From Euglena gracilis (lineage: Eukaryota), in assembly GCA_039621445.1 (NCBI GenBank), contig CP154954.1, positions 12,146,716-12,210,715 on the forward strand: a stretch of DNA of 64,000 nt, written 5' to 3'. Below the pieces are notes generated by a model. That model searched no databases, was not told the origin of the DNA, and worked only from the letters and a program-made list of their open reading frames with translations. This document shows positions 24,401 to 51,660 of this stretch, one piece after another. Every line of letters starts with the position of its first letter. Position 1 is the first letter of the stretch. The position numbers and the translations under genes were made by a program.

Positions 24401-25356
24401 GAAATGCGCAGAAGTTGGCGCAGCCCACTTCACGCGCGTTTTTCAGCACACAGAAAGAGGACAGTGGGCGATTACCCACTTGAAAAGATCACAGAATTTG
24501 TCTCGTACTCCCTCGAGGAAAGCCGACCAGGGAGGAAGGGACACCGAGGGCCAAGCACAAAGACATTGTGAGGCCATGCCTTGCTCGCCGGCGGCCTGCT
24601 GTGATTTTTTGGTGCGCTGGGTTAGGAGGTCCCGCCAGAGTTGGCTGCATCGTCCCCGACGTGGCGACCATGGCGCTGTTTCTCTGCCCCATCTTCTGAC
24701 CGAGGGCGTTTGAAGACAAATTTTCTTATATGGGTGGGGGGGGATCGGGCTCACAATGTCTTTGTGCTTCGCCCTCGGTGTCACTTCCTCCCTGTCGGCT
24801 TGCCTCGAGGGAGTACGAGACACCTCGGGCTCCGCACTTTGCCATTGAGAGGCCAGATTGTGCACTGAAAAAAGGGGGGCCAGGACATTCTCCAAAGCAC
24901 CTTGGGCACCAAGTCTTTGATAATGGGCTGCGAAAGCCTCCACCCCCTTCGACTGACCAATTTCACAAACTTCTTGGGCAAAAAGGCCCAAGTTTTTGAG
25001 CAAACCAACTCCAGCCCCTCTCGGACTCCGGTGAAGAATGATACAGGAGGAAGGGACAGCGAAGGCGGAGCACAAGACAACAGTGAGGTCTTGCTCTTCT
25101 TTCCGGCTGTTGTTTGTGTTTTTGGTGTTGGTTGTGGTGTTTCTTACTGCGATGAGATGTCGGAGTAGGCTGACTCGGAGACGGTGTCGGACTTCTCGGT
25201 GGCTCGCGGTGGCGGGTTGCTGGCCTGTCTGTGGGTGAACTGAAATTTCTTGGGGGGGGGGGGCCTTAGCGACTTTTTTGTTCTTTTCCGGGTCGGGGGG
25301 GGGGGGGGGGCTCACTGTTGTCTTGTGCTCCGCCTCCGCTGTCCCTTCCTCCTGGA

Positions 25357-26330
25357 TCATTCTTCACCGGAGTCCGAGACAGCTCCGGCTCCGCACAAGA
25401 CCCCAGTGAGGCTTTGTGCACCTTTTTTTTGGACAGCAACCCCCGCCTGTTTACCCGCTTCCAACCGCAAATAATGGGAAGAAAAGGCCTGCACATTTTT
25501 CCATTTTCCAATCTGGCACACCTCCTCAGAGGACAAACCTGCCAGTTTATACATGTACACTCCTGCCCCCCTGGTGGAGTGGGGGGCCCACTGGGGGGGT
25601 ACCCCATGTTTATCCAACAATCGTATCGTCAAACTCTTAATGGTTTTGGCAGACAGAGGGGTAAAAGGGGGTTTTAGACTTAACAACAGAGGTCCCCCTG
25701 GGGGGGCACAGTGTGATGTCAAACTGACATATTTTTTCATGTTGAACCAGGGGCAAATATTGGGACATGAAGGAATCTGGGGAATTTCCTCCCACTGAGT
25801 CTGTCTCCAACCTTTTCTTTGGACAAGAACAAAAACCTTGCCATCAACCTGGGACACTGTCCTGAAGGTTCTGCTCAAGTCCACTGAACGATGCAAACAG
25901 ATGAGTCTGAAACTTAAAATGACCTGGTCTCTCAGATCACTGAGGAACTCTGGGGGAGGTGCTGCTGCCAATTTCTGAAAGTAATGACTCAGGATTCCAA
26001 AATGAAGAATACCTGGGGGTCGATGTGTTCCATTTTCTTTTGTAGGGGGCCAACAGGGGTAAAAACCTTAACATGTGAAACCCAGGAAGCTGTACCACAG
26101 CACTATAGGCATTCCTGGCTTGAGCCACACTGAAGGTGAAAATTTTTAATGATTCCAGAAGCGACTAATTCTGGGCTCATGGTGTCGAGGTCCATCTGGG
26201 ACATGGTCAAAACTCCCCACAGGAGTCTGAACGCAGAATCATATCTTGCCAAGGACAGATTTTGACTTAAGAAATTGTCAACCACTGAGGGGGGGATCTG
26301 TTGCTTCTGTAACAACTGCCTGACAATAAA
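25357..26330 (-). pseudogene. Tyrosine recombinase of DIRS element A (frameshifted)
   Basis: LICLHRSVDL (catalytic R), QRKG, PHSTRGAG (HxxR), IGKW, HYLRL (catalytic Y). Confidence 0.9.
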
Positions 26331-27923
26331 ATGCAGGCTAGATGCCATCTTGACTTTCTCATGGGCTGCCCGTGACAATTCTCGAACATGTGGTGGCAAG
26401 ACAGAATTCTCAGGGCTGGTGTGTGTGGAATGTGAAGTTTTATTAAAAGGGGCCACCACACAGCTGAAACCCACAGGGGGCAAATCAGAAGGCATTTTAG
26501 ACGTCTGTATTTCTTTAATCTCAGGAGCCACTGGCTCAGGACAGACCAGGGAGGGTTTGCATAAACCTCTGAGAACATGTCCAGAGGGCAGTTCAAACTG
26601 TCTGTGGCCACTGCCTGAAAAATGGGGCCATCGACTCACAAACTGAGAAAGTTTGTGATTCCCTGGTGATGCAAACATGTCCACAGTTGTGTTTATGAAT
26701 TGCTGGAAAATGTGCTGACTTTTTTGAAAATGAAAGGGTTTAAACTGTAATCCCCTGGGTCGAAGTGCCGTCTTCTGATGGCATCGCTTTTCATGCTTTG
26801 GGAGGGGGCCCAGTGAACTTGGAGGGTGATGCACATTTCCATACACCACTTGAGAAAGGGTCTGATGAGTTTGTTCAGGTGGGGTAGCCCCCCCCCCCCC
26901 TTTGAGAAGATAGTAGTAGGAAACTTTGTTGTCCACTGTTACGGACACTGTGTCCTTTTTCCTGGCCGAAGACCTTACAGTGGAGATGGCTGCGATCAAT
27001 TCTTTTACATTGATATGTAAATGAGAGTCTTTTCGCCAAAATTCTTGTTACTGGGTGCCAGCTTGTAGGTCCAGGCCTCCCCAACCAAATGTTGAACTGT
27101 CTGACTCCAGGTGTCTGGTGACTGGGCTTGGGAAGGGTCTCCCCCCCCAGGTCTGCAGAATTTCCCTGACATCTTGCAGTTGAGATTTGCCCTCCTCTGG
27201 GATTGGAACCTGATGATCCCAGCCAAATTTTTCTTGTAGGTTGACAAAACCTACCAAAGTGTCTGTGAATGCCCTGAGGAAGGGCAGCCCCACCAAGAAG
27301 CTTCTTATGCATCCCTAAATTGAGGCCATTTTCCTGCAACTGAGGGACTGGTGTGTGACTAAATTCCCCAGTTCCCTCCGAACCATTTTCAGTTTTTCTG
27401 TCCCCAACTGTAATTTTCCCTGTGCCAGATTGAGGTGGAATCCCAGATGTGGGATATTTTGGGTGGATTAAAGGATTGATTTTTCGCTGTTAATTTTGAA
27501 ACCCCCCTGCAGTAAATCTGCTAGCATGATGGCCAGGTGGTTGCTGACTTGCTTCTGACTGTCTCCTATCAGGGGGATGTCGTCCAGGTACACAAAGCAT
27601 AAAAGGCCTTTGGCCCTCCAACGTTTTTCCAGGCATTTCATTAGACTCATGAATTTTTCTGGCAGAACATTTAAACCAAAACAAGCTGCCTGGAATTCAC
27701 AGCATGTGTCTTCCAGAGTCATCCTCATGTAGGGTCTTAGGGTTGGGTTCAACATTAAATGAAAGTAGGCGTCCTTTAAGTCTACTTTCGCACCCCATTG
27801 TCCATTTTTCAGGTGCCTGAAGATGACCTGGATGTTGTCCAGTTTGAAGGGGTGTGGGGAAAAATGCTGGTTCAGCTGGCGACAGTCGCTGATTAAACGA
27901 TGTTTTTCTCCCTGAGGCTCTTT
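26330..27923 (-). pseudogene. RT (C-terminal part), RNase H and Dam-like MTase domain of DIRS element A
   Basis: HRLISDCR, VDLKDAYFH, CFGLN, VYLDD; ESDSSTFGWGG, VTVDN; VDMFASPGN, YANPPW, ICPLWVSAVWWPLL. Confidence 0.92.
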
Positions 27924-28356
27924 TGTGTACCAGGCAGCCATTCTGCCATGGCACTGTGTACCAGATACAATGGGTTACGGCCTACAATCTGGCTACGGCC
28001 GGGCTGTACACAGTGGCATGGTTAAACCATAAGACAAAGATAGAATCTCAGAGCTAGCGAAAGCTTAGCGAAAGTAACTGGTTCCTAATTCAAGGTTACA
28101 GGGTTTTTGTGCTTTGCAATTCTGTTTTAGAATTCTGAGGGCGAAGTCCCATTTGAATAGAAGTTTATTTTCTTTCTTTTACAAAGCTCGAAAGAGCAAA
28201 AGTCACTTTCATATAAGGGACTGCGGTCCCAACAATTCTATTTGCCTTTGTGCTTTGCTATCAAAGGGGAAAAGGGAAACAAATTTTATTGTTACTCCCC
28301 CCACGGGCTTTTCGGGAGGAAAGCATAAGTAGAAAAGCCGGGGTGGGACGTACACT
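27924..28356 (+). repeat. 5' LTR (433 bp)
   Basis: Direct repeat of 45141-45572; I see about 4 substitutions and 1 indel. Confidence 0.97.
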
Positions 28357-28375
28357 TGGTAGCAGAATAGGTTTA
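28357..28375 (+). promoter_or_regulatory. Primer binding site, probably initiator tRNA-Met
   Basis: TGGTAGCAGA(ATAGGTTT) directly after the LTR; complementary to the ..UCUGCUACCA end typical of eukaryotic initiator tRNAs. Same core at 57086-57095 (- strand). Confidence 0.8.
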
Positions 28376-28576
28376 ACGGTCGATCGACTAAAGAAACACC
28401 CAGAAAGAGGCGCCTAAGCACGGGCGAGGTGTTTCAGGGGCACAAGTGGCTACGGCTGCATCACAAAGCCTCTGAGCCCCCACCTTTGCTTATATTTTGG
28501 TGTGTTTTAACACAAATTTTTACAATTTTTACAATTTTTACGATTTTCACAAAAATTTTCCCAACTTTTCATCAAA

Positions 28577-31500
28577 AATGCAAAGCACAAATGCGAACAA
28601 TGGAAACACACCTATTAACTATGCTTTGTTAACAGGTTCGCTTCGTGGACTGCAGAATGCAGACGAAGTCGCTACGGCGACAGAAAATTTTTCCTTACAA
28701 CGGGCGAATGCCCAAGTCGCTTTAGCGACAGAAAACTTTTATTCACAAGGGGGGGATGCCCAAGCCGCTTCTGCGGTGGAAAATTTTTCCGTACAAGGGG
28801 CGGAGGCTCAAGCCGCTTCGGCGGTGCCCCCCCCCCCACAACTGGGTTTTCGAACCCAAACCGCATTAGCGGTGCCCCCCCCACAACTGGGTTTTCGAAC
28901 CCAAACCGCATTAGCGGTGCCCCCCCCACAACTGGGTTTTCGAACCCAAACCGCATTAGCGGTGCCCCCCCCCCCTCTACAACAAGCCGCTTCGGCGGTG
29001 CCCCCCCCCTACAAGGGTCTTCGGACCCAAGCCGCTTCGGCGGTGCCCTCCCCCTCCAAGGGTCTTCGGACCCAAGCCGCTTCGGCTGTGCCCCCCCCTC
29101 CAAGGGTATTCGGACCCAAACCGCTTCGGCGGTGCCCCCCCCCAAGGGTCTTCGGACCCAACCCGCATTCGCGGACCCACCGTTAAAACAGCCGCATTTG
29201 CGGTGCAACATAACCCTACAATGGGTATACGGACCCCCTCCGCTTCTGCGGAGTCTGACTCACAAGTGGGCAGAATGCCCGAACGGGACTGGCAATTAGT
29301 GCCTTTTGGCACCCAATTGCCAACAGAGCCCCCCCCCCTTACGAGGACGGGTTGGAAACACCTTGTTTTTTCCAACCCCCCCCCCGGCCCTACCACCGGT
29401 AAGCCCCATTCGGGACTTGTCCCCCCCTCCACAATTGGCAGAAATCCCAGAACTACCTTGGTACGCTGAAATGCGGTTGGTGGTCCCGGACACTGCCGGT
29501 GTCATTGTTCCCATGGACAATGACCCCGAGGAAGACCGGGATTCGTTCTCCAGTAATACCGTTGAGCGCGTAGTCGCAAATTTACCGGGGAACCACCCAC
29601 TACAACAGCAATTTCGACACATCCAAGCATGTGTCCAAAATTGCGCTAAAACACTGAACCAAGTCCTACAATTTGATGAAGACAGTCACAAGGCCGTTTT
29701 CGGCAAGCTGGACTTCCTTTGGAAATACATCCAAGAATTTGGACAATTTTGCCAAAAGAATTTTAATTCCACTACAATGGACCTTCAGAACCTCCACCAA
29801 GGTTTTGACGCATTTTTACGCAACACCTTGGTACAAAACTTCCAACAAGTACAAGAGACCCTCCATACCGCGGAATCGCGTAATAACGCAAAATTTTCAC
29901 ATTTACAACAAAATCTACAACAACTGTTTACACAACTGGAAAATGTTTCTTATACAATGCAAGAAATGCAGTCCCGGTTACAACAACGGGATAAAGTGCC
30001 TACGGGTGCGGAACTTGGCTCATATGTCTCATATGAGCACTTTTCAAATTTGTCCAATGTTGTACAACAGTCCCAAGAACACATTTTGCGTTTGGGTGAT
30101 GAAAACGCGAGTTTTCATCAAAATTTTGCACAAATACGCGAAAACTATGTACAAAGAGCTTTTGCTCAACAACTGGAAGAGCGGATTGCTCGCTTAGAAC
30201 AAACCTCCTGCAAATGCGGTGAATTTTCCAACACTTTGACCACATTGCACACTCAAGTGGCGTAAATCGTGCATCGGCAGGATTTCCTCCATGAGAAGTG
30301 GCAAAACGACACACAAAAACTTGAAACTGCTTCCAATGCGCTACAAACCGCTACGGTGGAGCTCCAATCCCGCGATGCGGTGATTCTTAGCTTACAAACC
30401 GCGAATGCGGAACTCCAAGACCGAGAAACGGTCATAACTACCATCCAAACCGCGAATGCGGACCTCCAAATTGCGTTTGCAGACCTGAAAACCGCTTTTG
30501 CGGATGTTTCGGGACTACAAACTGCAATTGGGGACTTACAATGCCGCTTTGCGGAAACTTCCACCAAAAATCCCAGTATGGGAGCATTACGATCCACTGT
30601 AACCGATTTGCACAATCAGTTACAAGCGGACGTGAACAAAATCGAATCCGCGTTTGCGGATTTGCACAAACGGTGCAACGGTATTCAAAACTGAATTCCG
30701 GATGTCACCGGCATTGAAACCGCGCTTGCGGATTTGAATACCCAACACAAAACTCTACAATCCACCACTTCCCATTTACAAAAACGCGTACAAGCACTTA
30801 CTACAAGGGTCTCCGGACTCCAACCATCTTCGGATGGTCAACCGGTTCGCGACGTCGAACTACCCCTTGATTTTCGCACATTTTACGACCAAATGGTTGC
30901 GAAAAATCAGGAAAACTTACAAGATTTTTGTGAAACCTTGATGAAGACCAAAAATTCGGTCACCCAACAAGTTCTCACACTAAAAAAACAAATTTCGGTG
31001 TTGGAGAACCGACTTTCTACAATGATGGATGACAAAACCGCTGAAAATGCGGTATGGGTACCCCAACCCACGTTGGGTACCACAACCCCACAAACCGAGA
31101 ATCGGTTGAACGCCCTTACAACCGCCATGGAGACTTTGGTTAAGCGGGTCCAATTCTTGCACACCACTTTTACAAAGCTTTCCGCGGATTTTGACTCCAT
31201 TACTGACAAATTACCACTTTTGGATGAGTTACCCTCATACCGCAAACGTATTAAGCGTTTGCAGTGTGATGTTGAACGAATTTCAGACCTTTTCCAAGTG
31301 GTCGGTTCATTCGAACAAAGCATCCAGGATTTTGCATTGAGTTTAGATGAGATTCATGCAAAATCCTACAACCCCTCGCACTTTTCCCCTGAAAACCGTG
31401 TTTTCGGTGGTCAAAATGCAACTTCCAGCTCACAACGCGCTTTTCGCGCATCAACCGAAGCATCTTCGGATGCCCGACTTGCAACTCGCGACTTTGTGCA

Positions 31501-33375
31501 TCAAATTCCCGATTCGTTGGATGCCAATTCATCCAAAAGCGCAGTATGCGCACCCCTACAAGCATCTTTGGATGCGCATGCCCTACAAGCATCCACGGAT
31601 GCACGTGATCATGAACATGCCTACAATCGCGATTACAATCGCCCATTTATACCACAACTTAAGATTCCCCCCCCTAAGGGTGAATCTTCGGATGAGGAAC
31701 CGGTTTTTACCACAAAAACCGCGAATCCTCCGGTTTTACAACAAGTAATTCGCGAATCGGGACTGATTCGCGGTATGAGCCATACCCCTACCCCGGGTAT
31801 TGGCCATGGATCGCGAATGCGAAACACGGAATTTACCTCGGTTCCCCGATTTGTGGGTGAACAACGGGATTCCTATCCCCCTGGTATGTTACCACACCCC
31901 GAATCACGGAATCTCGACCCTTTACAATCCGAATCGCGGAATCGCGAAACACAACCATACAATTCGCGGAACTGCGACGTACCAAATACCCATGGTACCT
32001 ACGTAACCATGAGTACCATTCTGGATGCGCATTCGTACATCCCACCACAACAACCCTACAATAACAATTACGATGGAAATCGCGGCCCATAACGCGATTT
32101 CAAAGGTACCATTACAATTGCCAACAAGGTAAAACCACAATGAGACGGAGATCCCACAACTTGGAAACAATTTTGGCGCGACTGGACATACTACTGGGAC
32201 TTGAAGGGTCCAACCCAAGACGGGAAACCCCAGGTAATCAAAATGGAATTTATTGATTGCCTTCCCAAGGAAGAAAAAGATCGCGCCCGACAACTTGTGA
32301 TCCGGAATCGGATTACTTTTGATGAACTGGTTGACCAATATGTGTCAACCTGTTCAAGCCTAATTTCGCGAATTACGCTGGAGAAAAAATGGCGGCAATT
32401 CGCGCCAACGGACCGAAAATGGAAGTCAATCGACCTTTGGTATTCCAAATGGTTGGGATTGGCTTCTGAGGTTGATGAACTGGGTGAGAACCAAATGAAA
32501 GAACAATTCGATGCGGTTCTCCTCGATTTTCATTCCTACAATTATCAAGGACATCCACCGCGAGGAACTCGCGGACTACAAACTCACACTTGAACAAAGA
32601 TGGAACTATGTTTCCAAACAAATGAAACTCTCATAACTTTTGGGACAGATACAATCGGCTTACACCCACCACCCTACCGCCGGTCTCCCTAGCGGTACGG
32701 TAAGTGCCCTACAAAAGACTTCTTCTCCAAAATCCCCACGGGGATACGGTAAACATACAAACTCGCAAAGGGGAGATACAAAAACGCGCTATCCGCGCTC
32801 ATCTGACCAATCTACTGACAAAACTTGCTTTTTGTGCAACAAAGCGGGGCATACGTCCCGTGACTGCCCCCACCCTGATACGCGATAGCGGTATCAGAGT
32901 CCAAGGGGTTCACAATCCTCGCGGAGCTCGCGCTCCTCCGGATATTCGCACAAATCTATACAATCACAATCGTCGGGTTATCGACAAAGGTCCCGATCAC
33001 CGTTCCGCGACCGCGGACGCGATCGAGCACCTCGTGGTCGATCACCCCGACCCCCTTACAAACGTGATACAAATCGCGACTCATCGCGATCACGTTCACG
33101 AAGTGGATCAACTTCTTCGCGATCGTCATCCGGGAAACCGGGTTACAACAACCGTGGTCGAACGGGATTCCGTTCTCCAAGACCTCCAAGGGGTGAAAGC
33201 CCATCACAAAACCGACAACAATCACAAAACCGACAAAAGTGTTCCCTTTGTGGATCACACAACCACCACTCGTCCAAATGTTACCGCGCTCGCTCTCCCC
33301 GCCCGAACCAACGTCACCACAATGATACAAAACACAACAACAAACACAAGGTCGGGTTCAAAATCTCCTCTTTAG
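28577..33375 (+). pseudogene. Extended ORF1/gag: repeat-rich N-terminus, long coiled coil, gag core, two CCHC zinc knuckles; broken by stops and frameshifts
   Basis: ORFs 29306, 30269, 30734 and 32201 share one frame separated by stops; heptads LQTAxxxLQ; CFLCNKAGHTSRDC (32827-32868) and CSLCGSHNHHSSKC (~33240-33282). Confidence 0.8.
28660..29200 (+). repeat. Coding minisatellite, ~45-bp unit, ~10 copies
   Basis: QTALAVPPPQLGFRT / QAASAVPPP.KGLRT repeats. Confidence 0.9.
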
Positions 33376-33539
33376 AGGAGGGAACCCCAGCTTCGGGCGG
33401 GGAGGGGGATGAGAACTCCGAATCCTCGTTGGAGGACGACCGCAATGCGGTCCGTGCATTGCGCGCTATCTACTCACACAAGAAAACGATAAACAGCCGA
33501 AGTGCTGAATCGGACTTGGAGTAGGGGAGCCCGAGGTCT

Positions 33540-36500
33540 GTGGGCACGGACCTCTGGGCTGATGAACAGACGGAAGTAGGACCTGATCAACCTTACTTTC
33601 CCTGCCCATCTGCCTTTTTGGTCGGTACCCAGAAAATTTTCGGGTCCCCCACCCCCCACTCCAAATTTCTGCCTGGAATGCTGAGCAAAGTAGGAACGGT
33701 ATCCTGGAATAGTTGGAGAGACAACAATTTTACACCTGATCCTGCACTTTGCGTACCCCCCATGGAACTTTTGGTCCAAGCGGAAATCCGAACACAAAAT
33801 TTTTCTACCAAATGCAAAATTTTGGTCGACACAGGGTGTCGCATTCCCCTTCTCTTTCGAACGGGATTAATTCCCAACTCCTGCTTGGTAAAAGCCAAGT
33901 ACCCCATCAAAATTATGACTGCCGACAACAGCCCCATGTGTGGTGGTGACTTGGGATGCTTTTTGGACATACTCCTCCCCATCATCCACAAGCACCACTC
34001 ACAGCCCCCACACATACCAAATTTTCTGGGTACCTGGAGTTACGAATCGGGTATCCGCGGGTCTGACGTAATGTTGGGTTTTCCGTTCTTGCGTCAGAAC
34101 CGCCTTGTTGTGGACTGCCCCTCCCTCGGTTTGCGCACTACTTCACGCACACAACCCACACCACCGAAATTCTCCCCCAAGACATCTTCCCAGATGTCCC
34201 CCCGCCTATCCACAACGTTTTCTACAACCGAAAACACCGTTTCCTACACCAGGGGTAAAGAGAAAGCTGCCACCCTACCCACTACACTTTTACCGCACGT
34301 TTCCAATGCGGTAGGGAAAGCGAGTAGCTTAACCACCAACGTTTCACTGGGTTCCAAGGTGAAAGCCCAAAGGCCTGAAGTTATAACGGTGTCCAGTAGC
34401 CGCCCAGCTGCACAACTTTTACGTTTTCCACCAGGTGTGTCGATTTCGGACACCCCTGTACACCCCCCAGCAGCTACAACTTTCAACACCCCCATACACA
34501 CACTACACACGACTGACATGCACTACCAGACCGACACTTCCTTCCAATGCGCACATTGCCGGAGAATTTCCACACAACCTGATTTCGACTGTGGATGTAT
34601 TGTTGAACCTTCCAAACTAATCGCTTTACTCAACAACCAGAGTACACTTGGTACCCGGACCGGTATCGAGTATACCCTGCCCTCTGAACGAGAACACAAC
34701 ACACCGGAATGTTACCCGTTGTGTGTTGAAGTACATCGACAACTGGACAAACGCGGAATCGCGTCCCTATTCTGAATCGCCAGAATCGCACATGAAGACC
34801 TCCAATGGCAGAAAGCCAACCTTCCTGACCCCGAATGGCAGAATGCCAATCCTTCCAATGTCCCTGCATACAAGTGGCAGAATGCCAACAATAATTATCC
34901 TCCGTACAATACACCTGATACACTTGATACAATGATTAATGAAGAGTCTTCGGACACACCGCATTACCGATGTGGCTCGGCAAACTGTGTTTCAGCCCTC
35001 CACAGGACTGAAACTGCGACAGTTTTCGCGAACCGCAACTGGAATGCGTTAAATTTTGGACAATATCGCATTTTGGAAACTTGGTTTTCCAAAATTGCGC
35101 AAATCGCGAAGTCGATGGACCTACAATTGGAGATTGACACATTCTCGTCCAAAGCACATTCTCGTTTATCCAATTACTGGTCAAGCCGTACAAATGCGTT
35201 TGATAAGTTTTGGGGTGATGTGGTCCTGTGGCTACACCCACCTCTGAAACTTATCCCTCTTGTCGTCGACAAGATCCTTCGGGATCAAGCACGCGGTGTG
35301 CTACTCATTCCTATAAATCCCGAAGCGGAACGGTTCCAACAACTGACGTATGTCACTTTTCACTGGTGGGATTTACCGAATGACACCCCCTTGTTCGATG
35401 ATTTTTGCGGTGTCATGTTACCACCATTGAAAGAACTCATTTTCGTGTTTGTTTCTTTGATGCATTCGGAACTGTGGAGTACACTGACAAATTCCTACGG
35501 GACAAAGGTCAGAATGACCAAACATACCAACTATCCGCAGTGACAGAAAGCGGTGGTCAACACCCCAAGTCACAAGAACTATGTACAAAGATAAATCGCG
35601 AATTCAGTGATGTTTTAGAACATCCTATCTATGCCCATGACATAGATCCTGCAATTCGCGGACCTTTTGGTGTCTGTAAAATCGAACTCAAAGAAGGTGC
35701 ACAGCCCATGCACCGAAAATTCTTTCGCTGTTCAGGCGAAAGAGAACAAGCTCTCAACACAATGATCGAAAAACTGATTGAACGAAAATGGATCATACCC
35801 TCCAAAAGCGAGTGGACCTCACAAGCTTTTGTTGTGCCCAAGCCTCCCGATGCTTCTGGAGAGAAGAAGTGGAGACTTGTGCTGGATTACCGATACTTGA
35901 ACTCACAGACAAAAGACGATCCATTTCCGTTACCACTTATCGAAGACCTGATATATCGATTTTCGACTCTAGAGGATGGTTTTCAACAGATGCACTTACA
36001 CCCTGACTCACAAACGTAAACCGCATTTGTAACCTCCCGCGGAGTTTACCAATGGACGGTGTTACCAATGGGTGTTAAGAACGGCCCAGCCATGTTCCAA
36101 AGAACGATACAATGTATTTTACGAGACTTACCGTTTGCCGTTGTATACATTGATGACGTGCTGATTGGCACACCCCCTCCACTTACAAATTCGGGTAGTG
36201 ATATCCTTGATATTCACTACCGCGATATACGTTCCGTACTGACAACGTTTCAAAAACATCTGCTTTTCGTCAAAGGTGCGAAAATGCATTTGTTTCGCGA
36301 AACTATAAAATTTTGTGGACACATTCTTAACAACGGACAAAGGAGAGCATCTCCAAGCAAACTTGAAGCTATAAAGAAGTGGACACCTGAAAACATCAAG
36401 ACAATCACCCATCCAAAAGGATTTTTGGGTTTAGCGCAATATTACGTGATTTACATGAAGGATTTCTCAAAAATCGCGGTACCACTGACGCGGCAACTCA

Positions 36501-38240
36501 AAAATCGCGCTCCTGACAATACAAACATACAATGGGACGATACAATGCGAGAATCGCTAACGACAATTAAACAACTTATGTTGGACAACGTTGTACTTGA
36601 CATTGCTGACCCGTACAAACCATACGTACTGGAGGTCGACAGCAGCGACTATGCTGTCGGCGGTGTGTTGAGTCAACATAACTCGTCCAATGAACTGCGC
36701 CCTGTAGCATTCTTCAGCAGAAAGCTACAAGGTGAAGACGGAAAAGGACAAGTCAAATGGAGCATACGAGAAAAGGAGACGTATGCCATTGTCCTTATCC
36801 TACACAACTTCCGAAGTTGGGTCGCCAGTTCACTCGTACAAATACTTGTGTTGACAGACCATGAGACTCTCAAACACTGGTACACCGAAGACTTGAACAA
36901 AGCCATGTCCTCAGTTGGCCGAAGATGCCGATGGCACGAATTTTTGAGTCAATTCAACCTGGTGGTAGTTTACACACCAGGTCATACTCAAAAAGTCGCA
37001 GACCCACTTTCAGGTGCACCCTGACGAGGGTGATGCCACGTTTCACGGAAGTCGTGAAGCCGACGACGAAGCAAGGCGCGCAGACGCCGCTGACAACCTA
37101 CTTGACAGTTTTCCTGTCTCGCGGAATTGGCGGCGGATGCCGATAGCCCCCGTACGGGGAAAACGACAACACGGCAGAATGCCGGGCCCCCGCCGAGTTA
37201 CGCGATCAGAATCTCCATCCCCTCTCTTTTTTCGTGAATGGGATTATTCAAAGGATGATTTTTACAATGAAGTCGTACAAAGACTGCGTAATGGTGAATT
37301 CGTTGAGAATTATACCTTATCGCCTTTACGTTTGATTTTTCGGAATGATACTGGTTACAAGTACCGCATACCCTGTGACTTGTTTGATGACGTACGTTTA
37401 TGTTATCACAACCAAGGCCACCCTGGGGCCCCCAAACTTCTTTGGTGGGTCGCAGATACTGTACAACCCTGACCGAAAAAGATTTGTACAAGCGCTGTTT
37501 ACAAATTTCGCAACGGTGCCAAATTTGTCAAGCTGTGAAAACGCGCAGAGGTACCCCCCTGGTACGTTGGACTTCTTCCCCGTACCAAATGACATTTTTA
37601 CATCCCTCTGCATGGATTTTCTGGAACTTGAACCTTGCAAAGGAACAGATGACAAAACTTACGATTACATTCTTGTTGTCGTCTGTCGGCTGAGTGGGTA
37701 CATCGTAGCCATTCCATGCTAGAAAGCAGGGTTGACAGCACAAGTTTTGGCACAAATGTTTTCAGAAAGATGCATTTGCCTCATGGGTTTACCGAATGAA
37801 ATCGTGAGTGATCAAGACCATTTGATTTCTTCTCGATTTTTTACAACTCTTTGCGGTTTACTCGGAATTGAGCAGCATTTTTCTATCATTTTTCGTCCAA
37901 AAGGCAATGGTCGCGCTGAAGCAGCAGTTAAAGCTGTAGTCAACATGCTACGACTTTCACTGGCCGAATCGCACAATGCCTGGCTACAAGTATTACGCTG
38001 GTGTTTATTTTATATCAACACTTTACCGGGTCTGATATTACAATACTCACCGTACAAAATCGTCTTCGGACGAGACCCCCTAGCCATGGGCGACATCCCG
38101 TCAGAACGACCCGCTCGTTCTCGCGTGAGTTGCGAAACATGGTTCTCTGAAGTAGAAACCTTGCGCACGGATGTGCAAAAGCGCGTAGTCGCTATAAAAA
38201 AAAAAAAAAAAAAAACAAAAAAAAAAAAAAAAAAAAAAAA

Positions 38241-38276
<36 letters not shown>

Positions 38277-38737
38277 ACAATACAAACCAAAGACAATTTT
38301 TACAACAGTACAAATCACCGATATACAACCCAGGTGACCGCATGTGGGTTCGGAACAGTAGAACCCGCATGCAATCCACGAAGTTGGACCCCCTCTGGAT
38401 CGGACCATGTGAGATCCTCGATCGGTTGGGTACAAGTGGGCGCTATAAAGTCGCTTTACCCAACGGGGTCGAGGATGTACACATGGATGACTTCAAACCA
38501 TACCTGACTCCACCAAACGGTAAAGCAATACCCTGCCTCTACTTTAAACCACGGTCAAAACTGCCTGAAACAGATGATTTTGTCGTTGACAAAATTCTCG
38601 ACCACAAAGTAGACCGGGGTATAAATTACTGGAAGGTGAGGTGGAAAGGCTATGGTCCCGCAGAGGACACTTGGGAACCTGCAACTCGTTTTGTTGGTTA
38701 TATCCAACAAGACTGGAAACTATGGAAACAACATTGA
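33540..38737 (+). pseudogene. Gypsy pol: aspartic protease, MTase-like insert, RT, RNase H, integrase, chromodomain (disrupted)
   Basis: ILVDTGC (33820); [117 protein letters not shown] (38578-38680). Confidence 0.93.
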
Positions 38738-39077
38738 CATTTCTGTAAATACCTTCTAATGGATGATGTACAAAGATGTCCAAGATTTGTCCATAGCATG
38801 GACTTTCAACAAAATGTATAATGGGCGGATGCCAAAATGTATAATGGGCGGATGCCAAACCATTTTGTCCCTAGCGAGGGACTTTTCGCTAAAGGACTAC
38901 GGTCCTGAGTCGTGCATTTTTACACTTGGAGCTACAATTTTGATTTTACAATAAGTGCAAACATACAAATATTTTTGTGTGTGTGCACACTTGCTCGCAT
39001 GCGTACAATGTTACCGTACAATGCCTTACTTCTGTTTCCCCACAGCTCAGTACTTGCTCTTATTTGCTGTTTTTCAA

Positions 39078-42000
39078 GATGGATACTGGAGGAAGGGGAC
39101 CTGGTCCCCCATCCTCCCAACCGTATGTTCCCCCTGGATAATCTCCTACGGGAGGACCCCCTCACCCACAACCTCCTTCGGGAGGACGAGGACTTGCACT
39201 CCCTCGTGGAGGGCAAGTCCCCGTTCGGCATGTACAAGCTGCTTCGGCAGCAAGGCCCGTAGTGGCAGCCCCTCAGGTACAAGCTGCTCCGACAGCAAGG
39301 CCCGTAGTGGAAAATCCCCCTGTGACTCAACATGCGGTTCCGCATGTTGCCCCAGAACAAACTACACTTGGTGGCATACAATCTCAACCTATGATTCCAC
39401 AACAAACGGAATCTGCCTATGAACAGTATGCCACACAACCAGAACCTCCACAAAGGCAGTATGCCGCTCCCGTTATGCCTCGGTTCCCCAAGTACATAGA
39501 TGAACTGACAACGGCTTCAACAGATACAATTCGTAACGCTCTGCGCAGGTGCGCAGAGGACAGACCGGATCCCTTCATCCGAGTGATATGGGATTCGTAC
39601 TGCCGACAATTGCTTGCAATCACCAACAAGCCTATCGCCACCTGGGACATGTGGTCCCAGAGTACGATAGCAGGTAGAATCTTCTTCCAACCCGGAGAAT
39701 CCGGATTTCCAGACAACGTAACCCTCAGGGACCTGGGAGTCCTGGTTCCGCCTGTGCTCCGCGGAGTGCACCCAGTGGGTGATTACGCGGAACACATGCG
39801 CCGCTATACTCCTGAACTCACAGAAAGTGAGATGGGTGATGTCCAAATGCAAGAACCAATATACTTACCACAACAACGTTTTTCCTCTCCCCCACGCATG
39901 CCGCCTACCCGGAACTGGGAGGCTGGTATGCAATCACAATACGCCATGGAGGCCGAAGAGCCATACGATGAAAACTATACCGACGAGATGGCCGAAGAGC
40001 CTCATGACGAGTATACCACGGCAGAACCTGAGCCGGAGTATACCATGGAAACAGACGAACCATCTCAACCAGCCCCTCAACCACCACAACCCGTACAAAC
40101 TCAACCATCTGTACAATCTCAACCGCAACCACCGACAACCCCCGCCGTACCGCTGCCGGAACCGACAGCGATACAGGTTGTCGGAGAAAACTCCCTGCGT
40201 CCCGTAGTGGACAATATTAACTATGAACGAGTACCACAATCTGCGGATTTCGCTTATACAACCAAAGGCGAACAATACCTTCCCCTTGACAAAATTTACG
40301 AACTTGGATCACATTTGGGAGCCATCAACGTAAAAGGAGTGATAATGGATGGCATTGGTCCAAACTCCAACTTTTTGGGTATACCCACCTGGGCACTACC
40401 CGAAGTTTTGCGTGTGAATGCACCACCACCTCTACCTGGTCCAATGGAACAACTCGCTTCGGCGTCGAATCTTGTGCCGCCAGTAGCTCAACCTACTCCG
40501 GCACCACAAACAAAACCGGTACAAGCAGTTTCGACTGCACAGTAAACATCTACTCCGCCTGCCGCATCAGCAGCAGGTTCAAACCAACCTGTACCTATAC
40601 AAAGAACAGGACCCCCTGCTCAAGCCGCGCAGTCGGCACGTGCAAAAGCACCCGCACAATCTACAATTCCTGTTCGAGCACCTCCTGTCACAAAACATTC
40701 ACAACCGGCTTCGGCTGGACAGACACAACCACCTGTTGCACCGGGACAACCTTTCTCGGGTCAACCCAGGTTTGAGTCGCCAGCACAACGCGCCACCTAC
40801 AAGGAAGCTCTACAACATTTGACGGCACCAGCAAAACAATACAACGCGTGGACCGGAGTTTGCGACACCACCACAAACACGTCCAACGCCAGACACACAA
40901 CGTCGTCGTTTGGACGACGCCCCACAAAGCGCGCAGGCGCAACGTGATCGTCAGGAAAACGATGACCTGCCGATCCCGCCCAACGCAACGATCTTAATAC
41001 GAAATGTATCACCAACTGCGTCCAGACAAACCGTCCGATGACATTGCTGGACATTACACCGCTGGTGTAACCGTTACAATGTGGAGAAAAACACGAGCAT
41101 TCCGAAAAGACGGTGCATACCGTTGGAATGAACAAGAGCGCGAAGCCGCAAAAGGACAGAAAGGCCAGAAAGGCAAAGGAAAGAGCGAAGGCTCACAACC
41201 GGGTTACGACCTGGACGTACAATTCATGATTGACCATCTGTTCTGGATCTCAGACGGTTGTGATACAATTATGCACGAGTACTATGAGGAACAACACCCT
41301 TGGGTTGTTGCTCCTGAAGTACATCACCACATGGTCAAACTCTACAAGGAAAACGCCCGTGGCTTTTTCTTCGATGGTACAATTTCCTGTTACGAAAGCC
41401 AGGATGGCATCGACAATTTGCCGGGTTTCTGGCAACTACTTTTCTGGCTCGTATTTCATTGCTTGAACTTCGGTTCATTTGCAATGCCCGCCAGCAAAGC
41501 GCATTACTTGCCACATCCAAAGCTACAATACGGATGGGAATCATCCCTTGACGCACTGAAGACAATGTTCGACAATATCCGAGAAATCGGACCACAGGGC
41601 ATACAATGGGAAGTATTCCCACTTCCAAAGGATATACAATTGGTGACACACGAAATGTTCTGTTACAATTACCACATTTTTCAACGAATATTACGGCCCC
41701 CACTTCCAAGTGGTCGGAATCGACCTGACATACCCACAAAAATTTGTCGTTTGGTGCACCCACTGCCTCCACAAGTTCCCCATGGACTTCTGGGGCTTTG
41801 GTGTGCGCGGTCGCACAACCGACCGCCCAAACGCACAAAGGGCGCAGCCCCACCAACGTGAATGGGCGGAGGCCCAACAACAACGACGACTACTCGGACA
41901 CATCTGCCACAATCCCCTCGAAGTTAGGGAAATCGGATACGCCAGACAAAACCACCGACAAATGCTTCTGCACATGCAGACGTTCCAATGGAGAACATGG

Positions 42001-44621
42001 GTGTCCTATGCTCTGGAAATGTACAATTTATTCAATCCAAAACAACAACTCCCACAAGAACACCTCCCTCTTCCACCTGAATGGGACGAAGACGGCAAAC
42101 GGAAGTACATCAAACGCCTGTTTGGCGAAACTCTCCGAAGAGAGGACTTTGCCCCATTTTTCAAGGGCAAACGTACAAATAAGGATGGATTGGCCATCCC
42201 AATACTGGACTGGCTTCCTCGCGGATCGGGAGGAAACAAATTTGTCGGATGGCAAAACTTCCGTCTGCGACCACGTATAAAACTCCCTGAACCCCAGCCG
42301 GCGGAGTTCGAGGCAGCACAGTCTGCAGTTCAACAACCTACAACGGCTGAATCATCTACAACGACAACAGACAAAGCAGCAGCGAAGCCTGCAACCAAAC
42401 GTTCGGAAGAACGTTTGCCACAACCTCCACCTACACCTACAAGTCTGTGGAACACACTCCCGTACACTCTTCAGACTCTTCGTCTGTTTCCTCTTCTGCG
42501 TCATCCAGTGATGAGGAAATGGAAGAAGGGACAGACAATGAACACAGTACACGCTCCGTCTCCTCCGCATCTGTGGAGTCTGAACCCGGTGATGCCGGCG
42601 TACAACATGCTCTAAGGCCCGAAGTGCCAGCTACAACGCCTGCTCAAACACGACCACAAACACCATTACCATACGCGGAACCTGACGCGCCTACAGAATT
42701 TACAATGGCCGAAGTGCCTGCAGACTACAACGGCCGCAGCGCCTTCGGCAGACGTGGTTCCACCTACTCCCGCACATGCGGAAGCCGGACAGGAAGCAAC
42801 TGATGCTGAGATAATCGCATTTCGCGAACTGATCACAAGACAACAACGGGAAGGTATCGCAAGATACCAAGACCCCGACGACTTTATACTCATACCACCA
42901 CAAGTCGGACGCGCTGCAGAACGCGTCCGAAGTGCCGTAGCCTCGATGGTTGCAATGGTGCGATCGAGGTCTTCCTCTTCAACGCGAAGTCCCCGTGACA
43001 CGAGACTTGGCAAAAAACCCACACAAGAAGCTACGGCTTCCACCACAGCACTGGCAGCAGACGCGGCCAGTTCTATTCCTGATGTCCAAACACCCGAAGT
43101 GGTGACAACCACGGAAGCGCCTTCGGTCGAAACAACACCACCACATGATATAACACCCGTAGTGGTACACACACCTGAACAGGTGGTACCGACGGCTCCT
43201 GACGTACCACCTACCACCACACCAACGGTCAAACCTGCTCCAAAGACTCCTGCAAACGGGCCCTTTCCGCCACAGCGGAAAGAAAAAGGCAGTAAGCCTA
43301 AGGCTAAACCACAGCCTACAGAACCGTGCAAACCTGCTGAACGACACAACGAGCCAAAACCACCTCCACCTGGGAGTAGTAGCAAATAAGGAAAGCGGGC
43401 GAAGACCCCAGCTGCTACCACACCAGCACCAACATAGACCGAAGTGGCCGGGGAAAAGCCGGGTCACTTAAAACACTCCGAGGTAGAACTCGACAAGATA
43501 CAACGTCTGAGACCTCGCAAGAGGAAAACATGCCGGTTGACGATAATGCCACCCTTTGGCGAGAGGACATTATCTCCAACCTGCCGAGCGTCGAAGAACG
43601 CATTGCCATGATACAATCAGCCCGCGAACGCGGAATTTTGTTGAACAAGTGGATTGAACCACTCTTCTTCAACGACCAGAAGCATAATTACTATGTTCGC
43701 CATATTTGGCGATTCTACAATGCCTGATCACCAAGAGTGTTTGCCCAATATCTTGGGGAAACATTCCTGTTTGACAATAGGCCGAATGGCCAAACAACTT
43801 GGCTCTGTACTGTCTGTCACAACATTCGTAACAGCATGCCAGCTGTGCATGTCTGTTATGCAGACAACAAACGGAAAAACTTTCACCACAATGAGTTCGT
43901 TCCAAACACAGCCGCTCTGATTTGCGGTGATTGTCTCCTTGCCTGGAGACAACTGAACAACTTCCGGTGGTCGGAAGGAGACAGAGACCGGGACGTACCA
44001 GTTTTCTGTGTCAACTGCCTACGGGCAGACATATGGTTGCCCGCAGATGGCGGACATCTCAAGATCGTACCCGGAAACGAGGACGTTCTGGAAGATTTCC
44101 TGAATTTCTACAGAACAAAACGACAAATGTACCAACACAAAAGCTTCAAGAAAGCTGAGGCTTTTGACCGCGGCGGAATCGCCTTTGACTTCCAAACTGA
44201 TTCCGGCGGAATCAGACTTGCTGTGGAATGTACAAAAGGGCGATTGCCCATACTCTTCAATGATGACGACTGGAAACGAGTCATTTACCCACTCTTTACA
44301 AAGCCTTCAACGGTTTCTGAAACCACACAACGATGGTTATTGCCTGACTATCCACCTGAACGACATGGTTACGAACATTGTTCAGAATGGGTTGGTACCA
44401 TTCTGAAACCACACATAACCCGCTGTGCCTGTGCATCCCGCGCGCACAACGTTGATTTCAACGCTCTGCCTGGGATGCCACCACAGGAACCAGCAAACCA
44501 TCCAAGATGGAACTATTACATATGGCCTGCAACTTTTCCGAGAGTTTTCTGGGAAAATTTGCAGATTTACCTCCACAAGCGAGCTGAAACGCTCAAAACC
44601 GAACTGCCCAAGGAAATATAA
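39078..44621 (+). pseudogene. Large extra sense ORF (~1800 codons when joined) between integrase and 3' LTR; unknown protein with Pro/Gln/Thr linkers and Cys/His-rich domains
   Basis: Consecutive + ORFs 39262-40545, 41004-41861, 41710-42615, 42754-43389, 43530-43727 and 43737-44621 with the same A/C-rich codon style as pol; WCTHC, WLCTVCH, LICGDC, VFCVNC, RCACxxxxH. Confidence 0.75.
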
Positions 44622-45130
44622 GAAGTCAAAAGTTGGGTTCTCCCACGGATCAACACGGATGATCCCGACAAGGATACCCTAGACTTACGTCCAACCGAAA
44701 TGACCTTGGTACAAGACCCACACGGGTGAGTACTTCAAGGAAACCCGCAAACGTTGAGGGTTTCCTGCCTCGTACAATCAGCTACGGCTGAGATGGGCGT
44801 AGTCCCACATAATGAGCGAAGTCTCGAGCGTGAATACGCACTTCATCATCGCGTTCAACACCGTTTCAAGACCCTGTGGCGGAATCGCCTTAAGTTCGGT
44901 CGATAACATGTTGATCGCGAAGATTCAAGACTACAAAGACACAACGGTGTCAAGTAAGAAGACGCACAAAGCACAGCATGCGAGCCAGAATTCTTTTGCA
45001 CTTTGTGCTCCAAACATGGTAACCGTAATTAGGAACCAGACCATGGTATCCTGGTACTGTCTCCCTGAACCTGGGACTGTGCCTGGCATCCCGACTGGCC
45101 TGGTCCAGAAGGGAAATCGGGCAGAGCCCT

Positions 45131-45140
45131 GGGAGGGGGA
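45131..45140 (+). promoter_or_regulatory. Polypurine tract
   Basis: GGGAGGGGGA abutting the 3' LTR. Confidence 0.85.
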
Positions 45141-45572
45141 TGAGTACCAGGCAGCCATTCTGCCATGGCACTGTGTACCAGATACAATGGGCTACGGCCT
45201 ACAATCTGGCTACGGCCGGGCTGTACACAGTGGCATGGTTAAACCATAAGACAAAGATAGAATCTCAGAGCTAGTGAAAGCTTAGCGAAAGTAACTGGTT
45301 CCTAATTCAAGGTTACAGGGTTTGGTGCTTTGCAATTCTGTTTTAGAATTCTGAGGGCGAAGTCCCATTTGAATAGAAGTTTATTTTCTTTCTTTTACAA
45401 AGCTCGAAAGAGCAAAAGTCACTTTCATATAAGGGACTGCGGTCCCAACAATTCTATTTGCCTTTGTGCTTTGCTATCAAAGGGGAAAAGGGAAACAAAT
45501 TTTATTGTTACTCCCCCCACGGGCTTTTCGGGAGGAAAGCATAAGTAGAAAAGCCGGGGTGGGACGTACACT
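45141..45572 (+). repeat. 3' LTR (432 bp)
   Basis: Direct repeat of 27924-28356. Confidence 0.97.
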
Positions 45573-47000
45573 TCTTTTTTGGAGATTACAAACCAAGGGA
45601 TGGTGTGTTGGGTACCTTCCCAGGGGACTGGTTTTATGGCTCCTGCCTGAAAATAGTCTTGTAAAATACTTTTTGTCTTTTGTATTTCCACCTTTGATTT
45701 TGGTATGGAACATGTGCTGAGGGAGCCCCCTGTGTGATGAGTTGCAACACCCTGGGGGGGGCAACCTTTTGCCACCATTGCAGCTGGTCCTGAAGCCTCT
45801 GAAACAGAGGCACTCCCAGAAAGTGCTCCTCTGTCAGCAGCACCACGGTGATCTGTTCCACAGATCTCAAGCTTGCAGCTTCCCACAGCCTGCAGATGTC
45901 TTGGCTTCTGCCCCTCAGGGCTGGTTGACTTTGTGGCACAATGCCCAGCTCTGGCGGACACAATGTCCTTTTGGGACTTGATGAGTTCTGATCTGAAAAG
46001 GAAGGAGCAATACTTCCTGGCAAGGTGTTGGGCAAACCATTTTCCTCCTTAGGACTTGCCTTTGCCTTTGGGGCCAGACCGCCATGGTCTCGGTTGTCAA
46101 TTTGTTTGCCATTGCTTGAACTTCCACCCTTTTTCACCTGTGGAGGTGGGAAAGTGCCACATGGGGAACTCACCCCTGAAGTGGGATTTGATACCCTCTT
46201 TGTTGATGCCAGCTTGGGCTTTGGCCATTTTGATGTCTTCAGGGGTGAACAGGCCATTTCCTTGCTGTATGGTCTGAGGGATGCTTCTCCTCTTCCTCTC
46301 CTTGACAATGTCTCCTTCACATATTTGTTGGCTCAAACCCAATACGTTTTCAGGGGCTCCTTGTAAGGTGCAGTGCAGCGCTGCCAAGATACGTAGTATA
46401 TTCAAGAACTTCTGCTGGACTGCACACACGGTGCGGTCATACCCACTCTTACCGTCTTCACGGTGGTTGTTTTCCTCCGCTTTCGGCTTCAGGGTCTTCC
46501 AGGTGGGTATCTGTTCCAGCAAACTTCGTACGTCCAACCGTAAGTCCCCAGACTGTACCTGTGTCCATATCCTCTCCAGGTCCCCCGGCAGTGCCTCCTC
46601 GGCCGTCTGCCAGGGGAAGTCCTGGGCTTCCTCCGCCGCGCGCGCTGCCTCCTCGTCGCGATCCATCTCCGCCGTCGTCGTCGTCGTCGTCGTCCACTTC
46701 TCGTACAGCTTGAAGGCCACGTCCGACGCCTTGTCGCTTAGCTCCAATGACGTTATCGAGACGTTCTTAGTGAGAGCAAAGCTGTAAAGGTAAGCCGCCA
46801 GATATGGTTGTAGGGTAGACTCCACCATAGCCACTCCAGTGAGCTTCCGTACGGCAAGGGCACATCGGGTTGTTTCCCACCCTGCTCCAGTCCACTTCTG
46901 ACCTGAACCAATCGTGGCCATCACAGCAGTAGTGACGGCATCTCGCAAAAAGGCTGTTGTCAGTTATTCTTGTAAGAAAATGTTGCTCCACGCCGCTTCG
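45573..47000 (-). pseudogene. ORF1 (gag-like) and RT N-terminus of DIRS element A
   Basis: 283-aa ORF 46097-46948 next to the ITR; KSILQDYFQAGAIKPV..QHTIPWFVISKKE continues at 27923. Confidence 0.85.
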
Positions 47001-51439: not shown

Positions 51440-51660
51440 TTTGTGGTTTTCAGTCTCTGCTTCCTTTGCCGGAGGCTCTGTTCTGCTGTGTGGTTGGTGC
51501 GCGGGGGTTCTTTCTGCAATTTTTTCCCGGAGTTGGAAGTCTCCTATTGCTTCCCTTCGACTTCAAGGAGAAAGAATTTCAACGCTACGAGTTCAACTGG
51601 CCTTTTTTCGGGAGTATTTCAACTACGAAAACCATACCTACCATCACTTGTGTACTTCAG
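51440..51660 (+). mobile_element. Fragment resembling a DIRS ITR plus ORF1 start
   Basis: Similar to 63208-63360 (TGCCGG..TGTTCTG..GTGCGCGGGGG..CCGGAGTTGG..TCAAGGAGAAAGA..TTTCAAC..TACGAGT). Confidence 0.55.

Follow-up and report, generated by a model that had tools for sequence, protein, structure and literature searches.

Which parts of a retrotransposon far longer than its kind truly belong to it, and what might they do? The question is raised by a 64,000-nucleotide stretch of Euglena gracilis DNA (GenBank assembly GCA_039621445.1, contig CP154954.1, positions 12,146,716 to 12,210,715 of the forward strand; hereafter the window, numbered from its first letter). It holds a 17,649-bp long terminal repeat (LTR) retrotransposon at 27924-45572. 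The first-pass annotation had described a giant chromodomain Gypsy element with short LTRs, and an almost fully coding interior of ∼16.8 kb with three additions: a ∼1100-codon repeat and coiled-coil extension before the gag core, a methyltransferase (MTase)-like domain inside pol, and a ∼5.5-kb extra open reading frame (ORF) after the chromodomain. Each of these parts was recovered. The gag-pol path (28578-38737) and the extra ORF (ORF3, 39079-44621) cover 15,703 bp, or 94% of the 16,784-bp interior, so that the coding extent stands, but the ORFs themselves are broken.

Chromoviruses are the chromodomain-containing Ty3/Gypsy elements. With a probability of roughly 0.8, we read the element as a recently inserted copy with defective coding sequence that belongs to a Ty3/Gypsy chromovirus family of very high copy number and of the ‘DAM-LTR’ kind, and that is nested in the reverse transcriptase (RT) gene of a DIRS-like element. 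The anatomy given below was derived from stop-to-stop ORFs, their translations and Pfam scans.

Boundaries and gene order of the element

A direct-repeat search of the window returned a single pair of ∼434-bp direct repeats, 17.2 kb apart. The 5′ LTR (27924-28356, 433 bp; plus strand, as for all features of this element) has the tips TGTGTAC...GTACACT. The 3′ LTR (45141-45572, 432 bp) was delimited by the same search and by BLAST, and ends at 45572, not 45573. The LTRs are 98.8% identical over 434 alignment columns (BLAST) and differ by four substitutions and one indel, which sits in a T-run. Identical TCTTT pentamers, read directly from the sequence at 27919-27923 and 45573-45577, form the target-site duplication (TSD). 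A primer-binding site (PBS), TGGTAGCAGAATAGG, abuts the 5′ LTR (28357-28371) and may be of the initiator-tRNA-like type; a polypurine tract (PPT), GGGAGGGGGA, abuts the 3′ LTR (45131-45140). No tRNA or Rfam family was found within the 64-kb window.

The bounds were confirmed by empty sites. Eleven contigs of a DNA run (X1) connect both flanks and skip exactly 17,654 bases, the length of the element together with one copy of the TSD, which places the element at 27924-45572. The flank is itself repeated, so the empty sites are supplied by other flank copies. Direct LTRs, a TSD, a PBS and a PPT adjoining the LTRs, and the order protease (PR)-RT-RNase H-integrase (IN) with an RVT_1-type RT identify a Ty3/Gypsy LTR element. 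The DDE integrase motifs, the direct LTRs and the TSD show that it is not a DIRS element. On the plus strand the order is Gag-PR-linker-Dam-like domain-RT-RNase H-IN-SH3-chromodomain, followed by ORF3.

The aspartic protease (33669-34136, with ILVDTGC at 33819-33839) aligns to the N-terminal parts of the proteins P0152, P0007 and P0003. A conserved PR-DAM linker of ∼280 residues with Cys motifs (34137-34982) shares 31-35% identity with P0003, P0006 and P0007 and has no Pfam match. The RT and RNase H region (35560-36955, YIDD at 36146-36157) matches Pfam RVT_1 (E 4.9e-13) and RT_RNaseH (E 2e-23). The integrase (37407-38187) has an HX3H zinc finger and a DDE core (D in the 37609 region, D in the 37804 region, E in the 37903 region) split over three frames; its direct Pfam rve match is weak (E 0.15), and the 70% identical IN of P0152 matches both rve and H2C2. 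The last part of pol (38333-38737) comprises SH3_Tf2-1 (38333-38488, E 2e-6), the chromodomain (38579-38686) and the stop at 38735-38737. Pfam Chromo gives E 5.8e-10 and 39.4 bits against a cutoff of 25.1, and the integrase therefore carries a C-terminal chromodomain as in chromoviruses. Direct reading of its cage finds F, W or Y at all three positions.

Among the relatives P0152 is the closest: this metagenome Pol of 1,677 aa is intact, is collinear with the window pol and ends at the same point. Its Pfam order is Dam(weak)-RVT-RNaseH-H2C2-rve-SH3-Chromo, and its identity to the window is 75% over RT and RNase H, 74% over the chromodomain, 42% over the Dam domain and 33% over the PR-linker-Dam block. 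The RT-RNase H alignment, used for a metagenome scan, returned 80 Gypsy loci, only 28-38% identical and none matching the extension, the DAM domain or ORF3; a scan of viral contigs with P0152 gave no match. A programmed frameshift at 35441 was considered and rejected, since the site lacks a slippery heptamer and the intact P0152 runs collinear with the window pol. Between the integrase core and the SH3 and chromodomain region, pol contains a 76-nt A-run (poly-Lys, 38196-38271) that is a frame-change site in this copy; P0152 has ∼10 residues there, and reads appear cut at the run.

The additions belong to the family

The putative gag start (ATG 28578, in an A-rich context) opens a Pro-rich tandem-repeat region (28578-29299) in which all three frames are open. 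It holds a 48-bp (x3.3) and a 45-bp (x8.2) array, and both unit lengths are multiples of 3. The N-terminal extension of Gag follows (29300-32092), with a coiled-coil-like part (29627-31366) and then a disordered linker. In a heptad scan, the ∼580-residue heptad-like stretch (residues 110-690 of the 29300 frame) scored above the 99th percentile of shuffles. The Pfam and NCBIfam matches of the extension are to coiled-coil, SMC and Rad50 models only, all sub-threshold and generic.

Altogether ∼1,170 codons lie upstream of the RDFKG...GDPTTWKQFW motif that starts the capsid-like Gag core (32093-32700, read from the translation). We take this core to be capsid-like from the resemblance of its motif, and it has the highest codon-usage score of all pieces. 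The nucleocapsid (32826-33281, from the translation) has two CX2CX4HX4C zinc knuckles (32826-32867 and 33240-33281) around an Arg/Ser-rich stretch. In the Arg/Ser-rich nucleocapsid region a 91-nt skip at 33418-33510 was seen in one contig in each of four runs, and represents a length variant common to copies or relatives.

A minus-strand tblastx match of the giant element to the rest of the window revealed a related 3.4-kb LTR element (54047-57495, minus strand, 3,449 bp; LTRs ∼400 bp, 95.6% identical). Both elements have the LTR tips TGTGTACCAGGCAGC...GGGACGTACACT and the PBS core TGGTAGCAGA, the first 10 nt of the giant element’s PBS recur in that of the small one, and an 81-bp PPT/LTR junction is 81% identical; otherwise there is no likeness at the DNA level. 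In the small element the only long ORFs encode an N-terminus similar to that of the giant one, and a protein homologous to its first coiled-coil block (ORF 55322-56359, minus strand, vs. giant 29300-30262: 35% identity over 163 aa, E 6e-28). Conservation at the protein level in a diverged relative that lacks pol argues that the Gag extension is a genuine, retained protein module. It also suggests that the small element is probably a non-autonomous partner relying on a pol of the giant-element kind.

Whether the extension is the N-terminus of Gag or a separate upstream ORF (an ORF0 or ORF1, as in plant Ogre elements) was weighed at the border of the two parts. The frame 29300-32593 is open except for four stops; those in the extension lie at 30263, at 30692 and, as a TAA, at 32090. 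The TAA falls exactly at the border before the capsid-like RDFKG motif, as a separate ORF would have it, and the small element retains the extension homologue alone. However, a further stop lies 17 codons on, inside the capsid-like motif, so that stops here look mutational; the capsid core lacks an ATG of its own and lies in the frame of the extension. In addition, a long N-terminal coiled coil has a precedent in the Gypsy Gag of Cer1 (PMC10309623). We consider a separate ORF unlikely, and hereafter treat the extension as part of Gag.

ORF3 (∼1,847 codons, 5.5 kb) has its own ATG at 39079 and follows the chromodomain on the sense strand. Its open pieces have 467, 133, 287, 322, 257, 114 and 297 codons. 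Neither its longest open run (467 codons) nor the sum of its five longest (1,630 of 1,847) was reached in any of 500 first-order Markov simulations (maxima 331 and 952), whereas the antisense strand (265 and 888 codons) stayed inside the simulated range. Codon usage was scored with a table built from 1,199 codons of pol: all pieces of the extension and of ORF3 did best in their open sense frames (0.04-0.24 bits/codon) and mostly had negative scores in the other five, and the 335 nt that precede the 3′ LTR looked non-coding. In gag-pol the GC skew is negative and the AT skew positive; both persist through ORF3 and end before the 3′ LTR. The pol-like codon usage, together with ORF lengths beyond the simulated ones, argues that ORF3 is coding.

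The X1 contigs were then mapped along the element. At ≥85% likeness 105,946 of them lie on it and cover 30 of 30 bins (24,415 at ≥99%; 37,805 at 95-99%; 34,911 at 90-95%; 8,815 below 90%), with 78-95 distinct contigs at sampled sites over the extension and 40-93 over ORF3. Depth in contigs does not measure copy number, and transcripts cannot be read from contigs; what the mapping shows is that every part of the element is present in many diverged copies. All 30 bins were also covered, mostly at 90-99% likeness, in X18, a leaf-litter metatranscriptome that is the sole run on record as RNA and may contain DNA; this gives a weak hint that close relatives are transcribed, with DNA carry-over possible. 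Two further runs guessed to be RNA (X15 and X16), and small shares of matching words, were given no weight as to expression or habitat, and uncovered bins in those two runs do not speak for absence.

The window is a nest of transposable elements, and the giant element itself sits inside a DIRS-like RT, a setting in which the extra regions could be nested insertions of unrelated mobile elements in an ordinary chromovirus. A BLAST of the element against the window, however, gave no internal repeat pairs besides the LTRs and the tandem repeats, and no matches of the extra regions to the rest of the window that would point to such insertions. No RT, transposase or recombinase domain was found in the extra regions, all of the extra sequence is sense-strand coding with pol-like codon usage, and intact relatives have the DAM block in a collinear position. 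Nested insertion is thus very improbable. With X1 contigs everywhere and an extension homologue in a second element, we show that the extension, the Dam-like domain and ORF3 belong to the family and are not private to this copy, in line with the first-pass annotation, which had treated them as parts of the element.

The composition of ORF3 is that of low-complexity linkers alternating with three or four globular-looking blocks (Pro content 11.5%), and its C-terminal block is Cys/His-rich, with four CxxC/HxC pairs (CxxC from 43806). It has no internal repeats, no Pfam match at E≤1 and no NCBIfam match. Four pieces compared with the PDB by phmmer gave best E values of 0.1-2.1, which we take as noise. 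A word-based search, covering proteins of near length and thus leaving room for fused forms, found no homologue of the pieces 43728-44618 and 40998-41858, and a metagenome scan with the C-terminal piece gave 23 pattern matches, none of them confirmed. No 19-residue hydrophobic, transmembrane (TM)-like window is present in the ORF3 frames, hydrophobic stretches occurring only upstream and in another frame. By every feature tested, ORF3 does not look like an envelope protein.

Upstream of ORF3, a 341-nt AT-rich spacer (38738-39078) holds a candidate 3′ splice site (a pyrimidine tract and a CAG ending at 39045), from which splicing may be supposed. A splice donor in the Gag leader joining this acceptor in frame was dropped, as the candidate donor does not join in frame.

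ORF3 could instead be a transduced host gene, acquired by an ancestor of the family and carried as a passenger without serving the element. It lacks any retroelement-like domain, none of 152 related Pol proteins and none of the 80 Gypsy loci contains a homologue of it, and the Pol of the closest intact relative ends at the chromodomain with nothing showing ORF3 on that contig; pol-like codon usage would also be expected of a host gene. Yet 1,630 of its 1,847 codons are still open in an otherwise decaying copy and, as over the other parts of the element, many distinct contigs lie on it. It also has its own ATG after an acceptor-like site and the same strand-compositional skew as gag-pol, and no host homologue appeared in two word-based searches and one metagenome scan. 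These points lead us to regard a passenger origin as improbable, and to prefer ORF3 as a gene of the element.

The Dam-like domain and known elements

The MTase-like part of pol is a Dam-like (N6-adenine MTase-like) domain at ∼34983-35459, between PR and RT. The PR-RT insert (P0001, an X placed at its one stop) was searched exhaustively with phmmer; 233 proteins matched at E≤1e-3, 60 of them at E≤1e-10, and the best match fell on query residues ∼220-430 in all but two of the 150 hits listed. When the window domain was aligned with 37 short matches, 35 of the 38 sequences matched Pfam Dam at E≤0.01 (best E 2.6e-12). The Dam homology of the window domain therefore holds, because it reaches E 1.6e-38 with homologues that mostly match Pfam Dam. 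All nine invariant or near-invariant columns of the alignment are kept in the window domain.

Among the RT-containing matches, 24 of 26 have DAM and then a Gypsy-type RT, as in the window; full-length examples are RVT-RNaseH-H2C2-(rve)-SH3 proteins. In a quick maximum-likelihood tree of 79 domains (support by SH-like approximate likelihood-ratio test, SH-aLRT, only), the window domain falls in a 15-row clade (SH-aLRT 99) with at least eight Gypsy-type DAM-then-RT proteins. No PDB match was obtained with P0001 or with the Dam alignment profile, and the word-based search, for the near-length class only, found no homologue of the piece 34776-35540. Recent capture of the domain from the flanking DIRS copies is unsupported, the domain not being close to those copies.

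DAM-LTR retrotransposons were described in May 2026 (Fernandez-Moreno et al., bioRxiv 10.64898/2026.05.21.726589). The preprint reports 10,030 eukaryotic DAM proteins, 53.9% of them tied to retrotransposons, and attributes 30.9% of the DAM transposable elements to chromodomain LTR elements. The authors claim the first Dam domains in non-DIRS LTR elements, define five DAM-LTR lineages, report these elements as absent from Metazoa and Streptophyta, and name “EpiLTRs” the LTR elements that combine DAM, a DNA methyltransferase (DNMT) and a chromodomain. In their Euglena group DAM-LTRs and DAM-DIRS elements are mixed or nested (Fernandez-Moreno et al., 2026).

As far as the preprint describes them, the window element resembles the DAM-LTRs: it is a Ty3/Gypsy LTR element with a PF05869-like domain in Pol and a chromodomain, nested with DIRS-like DAM elements. 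This nesting, and the taxonomic range given in the preprint, are compatible with the euglenozoan setting to which the first-pass annotation pointed. Unlike EpiLTRs, it has no detectable DNMT: Pfam found no cytosine-5 DNA methyltransferase (DNA_methylase) in plus-strand ORF pieces of at least 100 aa (E≤1 for re-scanned pieces, including all main ORF3 pieces; E≤0.01 for the rest). The main text of the preprint, its supplements aside, contains neither ‘gag’ nor ‘coiled’, no ORF3 and no element sizes, and a literature search, these supplements again aside, found no description of the Gag extension or of ORF3. The earlier label of an undescribed lineage thus needs to be narrowed: the MTase part matches the described DAM-LTRs, and the oversized Gag front end and ORF3, found described nowhere, are without known relatives.

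Compared with chromoviruses in general, the element has the usual PR-RT-RNase H-IN order, an SH3-like domain and chromodomain at the IN C-terminus, an aromatic cage and, by design, a single gag-pol frame. It differs in an interior of ∼3 times the usual length, a Dam-like domain between PR and RT, the ∼1,170 extra Gag codons, the 5.5-kb ORF3, and LTRs of 433 bp that are short for a 17.6-kb element. DIRS1-type elements with an MTase domain share the same Dam-like domain family; unlike in these, the domain of the giant element lies upstream rather than downstream of RT, and LTRs, a TSD and a DDE integrase are present.

Precedents exist for parts of this plan. In GAG of the C. elegans Gypsy element Cer1, a long coiled coil is predicted on the N-terminal side of a capsid-like domain, in place of matrix (MA), and a spliced mRNA with gag-overlapping exons yields CERV, a 517-aa protein without homologues (PMC10309623). 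A long Gag coiled coil and an orphan extra protein are therefore common to Cer1, as described there, and the window element; the likeness is one of architecture and not of a sequence comparison. In contrast to Cer1, the window element has an ORF3 of ∼1,847 codons placed after pol, and a Dam domain, for which Cer1 has no counterpart in that description.

Ogre/Tat elements of plants have additional ORFs. The ORF3s of LTR elements in bdelloid rotifers are on the sense strand and encode env-like proteins or GDSL or DEDDy enzymes (PMC5408684), and plant Retand, a non-chromovirus, has a long region between pol and the 3′ LTR with antisense ORFs encoding TRP28 (PMC11963269). The window element is like these elements, to the extent that they are described there, in its long pol-to-3′ LTR region with an extra, lineage-specific ORF; unlike the bdelloid and Retand ORFs taken together, its ORF3 runs in the sense direction, is far larger, and has neither TM helices nor a Pfam match.

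A defective copy, its proposed roles and its surroundings

Active N6-adenine DNA methyltransferases have the motif IV (D/N/S)PP(Y/F/W). The window domain has HPPL at this position (HPP at 35235-35243), with His for the catalytic Asn of the canonical NPP, and by sequence departs from the active motif. In 142 aligned homologues the triplets are NPP (86), HPP (16), CPP (10), NAP (9) and other (21), and the triplet is unstable even inside the window’s own clade (NPP, HPP, HPM, NPH, YPP). The catalytic Asn is replaced in 56 of the 142; Cys variants cluster in the tree, and His variants occur in several separate clades and scattered within the window’s own clade.

The HPP and unstable triplets are among the points that weigh against the reading given here of the element and its parts. 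The window’s own match to Pfam Dam (PF05869) has E 0.0035 and 17.5 bits, below the curated cutoff of 28.1. Asn-Pro-Pro is kept in almost all DAMs sampled in the preprint, so that the HPP of the window element departs from a near-universal feature of DAM-LTRs as presented there, and expression of DAM domains in E. coli gave no gain of N6-methyladenine (6mA) (Fernandez-Moreno et al., 2026). The capsid-like core has no Pfam match. Neither ORF3 nor the extension has a homologue outside the window (0 of 152 related Pol proteins, 0 of 80 Gypsy loci), so that functions proposed for them are conjecture. This copy has ∼10 frame changes and ∼14 in-frame stops along the best path, and hence no full-length protein is possible from it. 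At several lesion sites its state also holds most of the X1 contig depth, from which much of the family may be non-autonomous.

An alternative genetic code does not explain the stops, since they include TAA, TGA and TAG. Most frame changes lie in or beside homopolymer runs, several where other copies differ by 1-4-nt indels, and the one LTR indel is in a T-run; ∼24 disabling lesions are also many for a young insertion. All this would fit an intact, autonomous real copy whose breaks came for the most part from errors of assembly or consensus in a high-copy repeat. The 14 in-frame stops, however, are substitutions and not indels, and at several indel sites the X1 contigs, which derive from short reads, carry the state of this copy at greater depth than the alternative. 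We find it quite doubtful that the real copy is intact, and read the lesions as real.

The insertion itself indicates a much younger age than that of its surroundings, given the 98.8% LTR identity and the undepleted CpG: the observed/expected ratio is 0.96 in the element and 0.50-0.61 in the flanks (1-27918 and 45578-64000). TpG and CpA are in excess throughout the window, consistent with CpG-methylation decay of old repeats plus a young insertion. The ∼24 lesions exceed the number expected at that age, and descent from an already defective, trans-complemented lineage is the likeliest account of this copy.

What intact members of the family would do can be sketched from these parts. Replication would be that of an ordinary chromovirus, with a tRNA priming at the PBS and the DDE integrase producing the 5-bp TSD, and the chromodomain may steer integration to marked chromatin. 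The ∼580-residue coiled coil of Gag could be an oligomerisation and scaffold module at the position of retroviral MA. As the small partner keeps the extension, the LTR tips, the PBS and the PPT, this module may be needed in cis or in large amounts, with pol borrowed in trans. The Dam-like domain might be released from Pol or work within it. Either it would mark new cDNA or insertions with 6mA, as hypothesized in the preprint, or it would bind nucleic acid without catalysis, an option favoured for this copy by His for Asn. ORF3 would be an accessory protein that has globular blocks, disordered linkers rich in Pro and a Cys/His block that probably binds zinc. It would probably be made from a spliced or trans-spliced subgenomic RNA through the acceptor-like site that lies 33 nt before its ATG.

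We tentatively propose, as a possibility that we hold with low confidence, a three-gene ‘giant chromovirus’ in which (i) the Gag front end (∼1,170 codons, the sole protein segment retained by partners) is a cis-acting assembly or RNA-handling module; and (ii) ORF3, from a spliced or trans-spliced RNA, is a new class of accessory protein acting with the chromodomain and a possibly non-catalytic Dam-like domain on host chromatin. Chromatin targeting or counter-silencing, which the first-pass annotation had suggested, is also raised as a hypothesis in the preprint (Fernandez-Moreno et al., 2026).

Should the Gag extension and ORF3 prove functional, the family would be a case of an LTR retrotransposon that carries three times the coding load and yet reaches very high copy number, and two orphan modules would join the short list of retroelement accessory genes. 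The HPP (16/142) and CPP (10/142) variants bear on the open question of the preprint, whether Dam-like domains methylate DNA, and the autonomous/non-autonomous pair in one window offers a handle on the Gag parts required in cis.

The giant element was inserted in the RT of a minus-strand, degenerate DIRS-like element (∼24446-27918 and from 45578 onward), in which RVT_1 (E 2e-15) is followed by a Dam-like stretch and then by a weak Phage_integrase (tyrosine-recombinase) match (E 0.037). A second degenerate DIRS-like element lies at ∼47950-51081 (minus strand), with RVT_1 (E 1e-8) and then a Dam-like stretch; its RT-plus-Dam-like part spans ∼47950-49385. Further along, 51283-51592 and 62856-63354 share two pairs of 83-90-nt direct repeats (77-78% identity, ∼11.6-11.8 kb apart), possibly the ends or fragments of another repeat family.

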